From a virus (taxonomy: Duplodnaviria > Heunggongvirae > Uroviricota > Caudoviricetes), in the IMG/VR virus record IMGVR_UViG_2663763286_000004, positions 1-11,464 of that record: a DNA stretch of 11,464 nucleotides. One strand, given 5' to 3'. Made by a program: the position numbers and the translations under genes. The notes under the pieces were generated by a model that was not told the DNA's origin, searched no databases, and saw only the letters and a program-made list of their open reading frames with translations. Shown one piece after another: positions 1,086 to 1,619 of this stretch (position 1 is its first letter; the number at the start of each line of letters is the position of its first letter).

Positions 1086-1261
1086 TGCGTGTGGCATGTA
1101 TTGGCTTGTTACCGTACCCGACTCGTTTTTGGGCTTCTGCGCTAATTGCAAAGCCACAGGTCCTGATGGCTGACAACATCACCCCAGCACCAAAGCGCCG
1201 CCATACCGGTATTGCAGCGGCACGACGAGCAGCAAAGAGACGCAGGAGAGCAAAGCGATGA
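1085..1261 (+). CDS. Possible small arginine-rich ORF (58 aa from GTG, or 31 aa from ATG at 1166); coding status uncertain
   Basis: Open frame bridging two genes with stop overlapping next ATG (ATGA); very basic C-terminus (AARRAAKRRRRAKR); no convincing ribosome-binding site. Confidence 0.2.
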   Translation: MRVACIGLLPYPTRFWASALIAKPQVLMADNITPAPKRRHTGIAAARRAAKRRRRAKR

Positions 1262-1434
1262 AAAACCGTAAGGCAAAACGACTTTTTTTACAGCGACCTG
1301 TGCGTGTGGTGGAGCTGGTTATTAGCAACCATAAGATAGCGGTACTCCATCCATTTGGTCAGGTGGCTTTTGCCGCAAAGCGTAAGCCTACTGCGTCACA
1401 GAACAGGCGGAAGAAAGGGTACGCAGTAAGATGA
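1258..1434 (+). CDS. Small basic protein (58 aa), paralogue of the next gene
   Basis: MKNRKAK... N-terminus and KPTASQNRRK C-terminal motif shared with downstream ORF; ATGA overlap with flanking genes. Confidence 0.45.
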   Translation: MKNRKAKRLFLQRPVRVVELVISNHKIAVLHPFGQVAFAAKRKPTASQNRRKKGYAVR

Positions 1435-1619
1435 AAAACCGTAAAGCAAAGATTCTGTTAGTTCGTAGAAACGCTCCTGGCGTCTGGCAGTGGGTGAGAC
1501 TCAGCAACCGACGGATGGGGTTGATGAAATATTACGGGATGATGGATTGTGGTTTTTGCAAAAAGCCCAGCGCGGCGCAAAACCGCTGGAAAAACCATTT
1601 GCGCACTAAAGGAGAGTGA
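1431..1619 (+). CDS. Small basic protein (62 aa), paralogue of the previous gene
   Basis: MKNRKAK... N-terminus (19/21 nt identical to 1258-1278) and KPSAAQNRWK motif; stop 1 nt before the strong RBS/ATG of the next gene. Confidence 0.5.
   Translation: MKNRKAKILLVRRNAPGVWQWVRLSNRRMGLMKYYGMMDCGFCKKPSAAQNRWKNHLRTKGE

Follow-up and report, generated by a model that had tools for sequence, protein, structure and literature searches.

The stretch of DNA analysed here (11,464 nucleotides, hereafter the window) is a P1-like phage-plasmid, in which the backbone genes humD and phd/doc are accompanied by lpa, pacA and pacB, and in which a C4 antisense RNA (Rfam, 75.9 bits) directly follows an isrK-like RNA. 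The P1-like character does not extend to the left part of the window, which is a transplanted lambdoid early-left accessory module of the 'exo-xis' type. Within this part, an Ead/Ea22-like gene is followed by a 58-aa Arg-rich reading frame, by two small open reading frames that we term ORF1 and ORF2, and by a gene for a 171-aa protein (Table 1). The same block is also present in Stx-converting phages, in TL-2011b/c and in others, and a 97-kb E. coli plasmid matches positions 1230-1640 at 100% identity. A transposase fragment marks the left edge of the window. The lambdoid ea-type small genes that lie upstream of humD match phrog_660, 3876, 1258, 2638, 21459 and 3797, all of the unknown-function class, and this block looks like an accessory module transplanted into a P1-like backbone.

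Table 1. Features of the window discussed in the text, in order of position.
Feature	Position	Strand	Remarks
IS3-family transposase orfA fragment	1-327	-	left edge of window
Block of lambdoid ea-type small genes	within 597-4900	+	~4 kb; upstream of humD
Ead/Ea22-like gene	597-1085		Pfam E=7.6e-33
58-aa Arg-rich ORF	1085-1261	+	phrog_13831, E=5e-40; PhiV10p49-like; ends ...AARRAAKRRRRAKR
AGGAG Shine-Dalgarno for ORF1	1244-1248	+	9 nt before ATG, inside 3' end of Arg-rich ORF; read from sequence
ORF1	1258-1434	+	58 aa; upstream array member; 'A-type' body; upstream-type tail ...KPTASQNRRKKGYAVR-stop; phrog_1380; RefSeq WP_000797289.1
T7 homopolymer run in ORF1	1283-1289	+	codons 9-11; T8 in some relatives
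ORF1 C-terminal motif and 'U-junction' linker	1384-1434	+	ends in ATGA stop/start overlap, 1431-1434
ORF2	1431-1619	+	62 aa; terminal array member; 'B-type' body; terminal tail ...KPSAAQNRWKNHLRTKGE-stop; phrog_1380; RefSeq WP_000797279.1
Variable body cassette of ORF2	1445-1564	+	identity drop against TL-2011b
AAGGAG Shine-Dalgarno in last ORF2 codons, and junction	1609-1623	+	TGA 1617-1619, one base, next-gene ATG 1621
171-aa gene	1621-2136	+	phrog_631 / phrog_9263; not a member of the ORF1/ORF2 family
humD	4981-5370		P1-like backbone gene
phd/doc	5437-6044		P1-like backbone genes
isrK-like Hfq-binding RNA (60.8 bits), then C4 antisense RNA	10694-10883	+	Rfam; downstream of pacB

ORF1 and ORF2 have exactly the coordinates and sizes that the initial annotation had assigned to them, and they resemble one another at both ends in the manner that it described. 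Both begin with MKNRKAK; their first 21 nt match at 19 positions (1258-1278 against 1431-1451), and the two differences are synonymous (AAG/AAA and AAA/AAG). With up to two mismatches allowed, this 21-nt repeat occurs at only two sites in the window, and it was absent from all of 200 dinucleotide-preserving shuffles. Near the C-terminus, both proteins carry a KPxAxQNRxK motif (KPTASQNRRK in ORF1, KPSAAQNRWK in ORF2), and a central turn reads ISNHK in the former and LSNRR in the latter. BLASTP aligns the two proteins with 20 identities over 54 positions (37%, E=5e-10), and their start codons are spaced by exactly 173 nt.

The starts of ORF1 and ORF2 each overlap the stop of the preceding reading frame as ATGA (at 1258-1261 and 1431-1434, respectively). 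Most loci keep the flank ...CGCAGGAGAGCAAAGCG-ATG in front of the first family copy. Because ORF1 has an AGGAG element of its own, whereas ORF2 combines a weak ribosome-binding site with the ATGA overlap, translation of ORF2 is probably coupled to that of ORF1; as judged from the overlaps and the Shine-Dalgarno layout, ORF2 would be translated mainly by re-initiation after ORF1. At the far end of the pair, the junction ACTAAAGGAGAG-TGA-T-ATG (also given as ...AAAGGAGAG-TGA-T-ATG) is kept regardless of which gene follows. A promoter and terminator scan of positions 1-5000 returned none near ORF1 or ORF2, a result that fits a long, densely packed polycistronic operon. A programmed frameshift fusing ORF1 to ORF2 was rejected, as the ORF2 frame is open for just 15 codons before its ATG and no long alternative frame is present.

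The Arg-rich reading frame upstream of the pair begins with a GTG that overlaps the stop codon of the ea22-like gene, and carries no PGAP annotation in the RefSeq plasmid L001. It is kept in phiV10, Bas106 and L091, and comparison with phiV10 (pS 0.19, pN 0.04) points to purifying selection. In at least 61% of unique contexts it lies directly upstream of the family to which ORF1 and ORF2 belong. A weak nucleotide alignment hints at a distant relationship between its 3' end and the junction tail of that family, of which it may be a degenerate form.

Distribution of the phrog_1380 family

Both proteins match the 62-position profile of phrog_1380, ORF1 over positions 1-60 (E=6.5e-23) and ORF2 over positions 1-62 (E=1e-40), and PGAP calls both as coding sequences in RefSeq plasmids. 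Homologues form 61 clusters in a 5.8-billion-protein collection and, among 1.84 billion representatives, 48 clusters at 50% identity. Where a source is named, it is an Escherichia or Salmonella phage, prophage or phage-plasmid, or else the virulent phage Av-05; carriers include the Stx phages, TL-2011b/c, phiV10, Bas106, Sasha and Av-05, whereas lambda itself has no family member. The search for homologues that the initial annotation had proposed thus finds the reading frame conserved in many temperate enterobacterial phages. A scan of species-representative genomes with the family alignment gave 126 pattern matches, none of which was confirmed; the family is found instead in viral, phage, plasmid and E. 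coli collections. Among 5426 complete E. coli genomes, 987 (~18%) contain a match, and both genes are present in 137 complete E. coli genomes, counting matches that cover at least 80% of the two-gene stretch. ORF2 is 98% identical to the single copy of VT2-Sakai, Stx2 II, Min27 and other Stx phages, and 98-100% identical to Stx-phage and P1-like copies taken together.

Family members have been named before, as orf8 of VT2-Sakai ('VT2-Sap08'), as PhiV10p50 and PhiV10p51, and, in the Sp5 prophage of Sakai, as ECs_1168, which follows ea22. Every annotated member is a 'hypothetical protein'; these members and the two proteins studied here belong to the same family by full-length HMM matches, and nothing about them differs in kind. 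ORF1 and ORF2 are therefore ordinary, already annotated hypothetical genes of a catalogued orphan family. Tandem paralogy is likewise not new in itself, since the phiV10 annotation already remarks that p51 resembles p50. We found no mention in the literature of the peptide, the accessions, the locus tags or the Phi24B gene names, and the family does not appear in a large screen of phage accessory genes (a preprint with 39 supplements). Papers on the exo-xis region mention the genes that follow ea22 only collectively, as a set that varies and contains partial duplications.

Arrays, tails and body types

To survey copy number, we used 132 unique contexts drawn from viral contigs and phage records. 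A single copy was present in 76 of them and an array in 54; the arrays are pairs, apart from two with three copies (L189, and L104, in which the second copy is frameshifted). Some P1-like plasmids are 173 nt shorter than the window, and carry only the ORF2 type, behind the flank that here precedes ORF1.

Comparison of the C-termini shows that the tail is set strictly by position in the array and not by body type. In 54 of 54 arrays, the non-terminal copies have the shorter tail and end in [QR]NRR[KE]KGxAVR-stop (for example, QNRRKKGYAVR-stop), with a stop codon that overlaps the next ATG. The last copy ends in QNRWKNHLRTKGE-stop, and terminal and single copies all end in ...QNRWKNHLRTKG[ED]-stop or a point variant of it. 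PhiV10p50, for instance, joins a B-like body to the junction tail. The single copy of L090 has an A-like body and a terminal tail; in L091, this A-like body is the upstream one and carries the junction tail. In the triple array of L189, an A body and a B body, each with the upstream (U) tail, precede a C body with the terminal (T) tail. The combinations of bodies seen are A with B, A with C, B-like with C, A-like with 'AKPGQ', and a triple.

Alignments between phages place the changes in identity at the edges of the bodies. Against TL-2011b, the window is 93-100% identical over 1085-1700, but only 53-66% identical in 1445-1564. Against phiV10, the junction at 1385-1444 is 90-100% identical to the p50/p51 junction, compared with 46-73% for the gene bodies. 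These patterns show that each gene consists of a variable body of ~120 nt held between conserved coding linkers, which encode M[KN]NRKA[KR]xL on the N-terminal side and [KR]xSAAQNR... on the C-terminal side. Phages swap bodies through breakpoints inside these linkers, and whole ATG-to-ATG units (173 nt here) are gained or lost to yield singles, pairs and occasional triples. The conserved coding ends thereby also serve as homology for recombination. The initial annotation had spoken of duplicated genes; the two are indeed related tandem genes, but duplication is too simple a description. Body types are freely recombined, and relatives with one copy lack precisely one unit of 173 nt, so that recombination at the conserved ends seems to have stacked or swapped in the second copy.

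The arrangement resembles lambdoid mosaic exchange, in which different alleles occupy the same slot, in that sharp transitions from 93-100% to 53-66% identity fall at short conserved segments. It differs in that the linkers are part of coding sequence and subject to amino-acid selection of their own, in that the exchanged unit is just ~120 nt, and in that the linkers also permit tandem stacking. Neither the position-dependent tail nor the exchange of body cassettes appears in the annotations and literature that we found, and together they make a modest addition to what is recorded. The layout of cassettes and linkers shows in compact and tractable form how very small genes are shuffled by phages.

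The genes that flank the arrays also differ between loci. Among 118 unique contexts, the gene after the array is the 171-aa gene in 36, a 69-71-aa Cys-rich 'Sap07-like' gene in another 36, and some other gene in 46. Because neighbours vary on both sides, the family gene constitutes a self-contained module. The Cys-rich product (MAIAASYTMHLYCDCxQCT..., 'VT2-Sap07'), whose gene is the commonest alternative downstream neighbour, is encoded at 4191-4406 of L004, 2194-2403 of L088 and 3185-3394 of L090, and in one relative (P0091) an ORF1-type body is fused in frame to this protein. The 171-aa protein has no match in Pfam or NCBIfam; a D...EAK pattern in it recalls PD-(D/E)xK nucleases, and in some phages it has been called as a fusion with ORF2 (phrog_9263, 230 aa).

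A more far-reaching reading of the arrays would take them as a recombination-driven cassette system that uses the linkers as crossover sites to swap and stack ~120-nt hypervariable bodies of a small protein that binds polyanions or nucleic acids. Temperate phages and phage-plasmids would in this way acquire a quickly exchangeable set of variants, differing in specificity, of a single effector of host takeover or anti-defence, with body diversity maintained by an arms race against a variable host or competitor target, and with the family representing both a new effector family and a new fold. We consider this extended reading unlikely.

We also weighed whether ORF1 and ORF2 make up an obligate system of two components, be it a heterodimer or a couple of the toxin-antitoxin kind. 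The two genes are tightly coupled, and tandem pairs recur in backbones as unrelated as those of P1-like elements, Stx lambdoid phages, TL-2011b, phiV10 and L091-93, as such a partnership would predict. Singles nonetheless outnumber arrays (76 against 54), body types combine freely so that partners vary, and the A-like body of L090 stands alone with a terminal tail. Both proteins are, moreover, equally basic (net charges of +15 and +14), unlike typical toxin/antitoxin pairs, and neither has a match in PADLOC. An obligate pair is thus very improbable. Membership in a toxin-antitoxin or defence system more generally was rejected on the absence of PADLOC, Pfam and NCBIfam matches and on the excess of singles over pairs.

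The state of ORF1 in close relatives bears on the same point. In 3 of 44 unique A-type contexts, the homopolymer run near its start is T8, which truncates ORF1 to 22 aa; this lengthening may represent a real, slippage-prone inactivation or an assembly error. Inactivation of ORF1 in these contexts, together with the presence of one copy in most phages, indicates that the second copy is dispensable. An extra copy would supply a further variant of the protein and not an obligate partner.

Selection on the conserved ends

The comparison of synonymous and non-synonymous change between the paralogues, another check proposed with the initial annotation, shows conserved ends with high pS and low pN. 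Between ORF1 and ORF2, the ten N-terminal codons have a pS of 0.69 and a pN of 0.12, and the C-terminal motif has values of 0.92 and 0.17. The C-terminal motif of ORF2 differs from that of the distant L094 copy with a pS of 0.88 and a pN of 0.00. The ends are thus nearly saturated at synonymous sites while their amino acids are kept, indicating that they are conserved as protein and not as DNA, and excluding conservation at the nucleotide level alone. Polymorphism within types was judged against a neutral expectation of ~1 synonymous to 3 non-synonymous changes; the observed ratios are 14:6 for the ORF1 type and 13:14 for the ORF2 type, both clearly shifted towards synonymous change.

The middle of the protein behaves differently from its ends. 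In deep comparisons, pN in this region (0.60) is close to pS (0.67), and two relatives (P0054 and P0060) read the middle of the protein in another frame (...GETQQPTDGVNETLRDDGLWF...) and regain the original frame before the C-terminal motif. Such double-frameshift variants, to which L104 also belongs, are rare, and both conserved ends are kept in them. Given these two observations, the protein core may be only weakly constrained.

A recombination-based view of the locus can be pushed further, to the claim that the conserved ends are above all nucleotide-level linkers for recombination, or lambdoid mosaic boundaries, and that the reading frames between them are incidental and non-functional. 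On this claim one would readily understand why ORF2 and the downstream copies of TL-2011b and phiV10 have identical C-motif DNA (pS 0.00) next to bodies that are ~50% different, why gains and losses come in units of exactly 173 nt, and why pN approaches pS in the bodies when distant members are compared. It fails to account for the ends themselves, which in deep comparisons combine a pS of 0.69-0.92 with a pN of 0.00-0.17 and in which, for example, Arg52 is specified by AGG in ORF1 and by CGC in ORF2. Within-type polymorphism leans synonymous, distant members hold the motifs and the hydrophobic strand pattern through other codons, and nearly all of the 132 contexts have an intact reading frame. 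We accordingly give incidental reading frames a very low probability.

The idea that the region is a structured RNA or regulatory leader, whose small reading frames serve only to couple translation to downstream genes, is hardly credible: the ATGA overlaps and the next-gene Shine-Dalgarno sequence within the last ORF2 codons do show a role in coupling, but the predicted fold of 1240-1640 is unremarkable (z=+0.66, with 79 of 100 shuffles at least as stable), no Rfam match falls within 1085-2136, and coupling alone leaves amino-acid selection at the distant S25-N26-R27 motif unexplained.

The evidence favours instead the view that ORF1 and ORF2 encode selected proteins, as the initial annotation had argued in calling them real genes and not chance open reading frames. 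That position is supported by their phrog_1380 and RefSeq assignments, by the in-frame homologues, by the pS and pN values of the paralogues and by the within-type polymorphism. From these sequence comparisons, the two are very probably real members of a single orphan phage family with a cassette architecture.

Predicted fold and candidate activity

An alignment of 32 diverse family members shows three invariant residues (N3, R4 and R52) and nine that are nearly so (M1, K5, A6, L9, S25, N26, A48, Q50 and N51). The conserved positions form three 'N-R-basic' patches, located at the N-terminus, in the central turn and in the C-terminal helix, and ORF1 and ORF2 each contain all three corresponding motifs, M[KN]NRKA[KR]xL, [ILV]SN[RH][RK] and [KR]xSAAQNR[WR]K. 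Across the variable stretches, a hydrophobic strand pattern persists at positions 22, 24, 31, 32, 38 and 42. An AF2 model built from the 32 sequences (pLDDT 76.7) contains helices at residues 4-12 and 48-60 and strands at 19-25, 28-33 and 38-43, and we accordingly expect the protein to fold as a helix, three strands and a second helix. Net charge in the family ranges from +10 to +16, with a pI of 10.4-12.0.

In such a fold, N3-R4-K5, S25-N26-R27 and Q50-N51-R52-K54 would together form a basic surface, whose ligand, engaged soon after infection or induction, might be a nucleic acid or some other polyanionic component of the host; the sheet, with its variable sequence, would serve as a scaffold that tolerates change or would tune specificity. 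Given the extreme charge, and given that every strictly conserved residue is polar or basic, binding to nucleic acid or another polyanion is taken as the most likely activity. As an assignment drawn from sequence and a structural model, that of a nucleic-acid- or polyanion-binding early accessory protein is tentative, and we rate its chances as somewhat below even.

Searches for known relatives of this fold were negative. ORF1 and ORF2 have no match in Pfam, NCBIfam or PADLOC, and Pfam gave no consistent match across the 32 family members. A sequence-profile search of the PDB returned 0 matches, and the AF2 model had no significant structural neighbour, with BFVD returning a family member only. 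A CsrA (PF02599)-like fold, raised by the pairing of 'KILLVRRNAPG' with 'MLILTRRVGE', was rejected at an hhalign probability of 0.2%.

Residues 1-22 of lambda N present a further point of comparison, as they too comprise a short basic helix with very high positive charge and a Q-x-x-W-K arrangement (AAQNRWKN in the family, EKQAQWKA in N). Non-terminal family copies, however, have Arg in place of this Trp, and the family has a predicted beta core that N does not. An antiterminator of the lambda N type, built on an arginine-rich motif (ARM), was rejected (hhalign probability of 0.2% over 8 columns), and the likeness to N is at most a weak analogy.

Considered as a whole, the data are best accounted for by two members of an orphan family that lie in a transplanted exo-xis-type operon, are translationally coupled and have a cassette-like architecture, an account to which we assign a probability of about 0.8. 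[quoted passage not shown] As a class, these are early-left, non-essential accessory proteins of 55-90 residues, encoded between exo and xis. In Stx phages, the phrog_1380 family shares their operon and position class, directly after ea22, but it has no sequence or fold similarity to them. Small exo-xis proteins have been reported to shift the lysis-lysogeny balance (PMC8614690, PMC7093339), and the activity proposed here would, by analogy, resemble that of small exo-xis proteins for which a part in transcription and in the lysis-lysogeny decision has been proposed (PMC8614690).

These parallels give the family some wider relevance. Among its carriers are many P1-like phage-plasmids, some of them with resistance genes, as well as the Stx2 prophages of O157:H7. 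Its location, the exo-xis region, contains genes with an influence on lysogeny and on the induction of Stx prophages. If the protein is active, it could be a new player in the decision between lysogeny and induction, or in phage counter-defence.

In the window, the family occupies a position after an Ead/Ea22-like gene, as expected of an early accessory operon of a temperate phage. The order in VT2-Sakai and ST2-8624 is exo, orf60a, orf63, orf61/orf73, ea22, the phrog_1380 gene, further small genes, xis and int; in other loci, the phrog_1380 gene lies near recT, erf, ssb or DUF551 genes.
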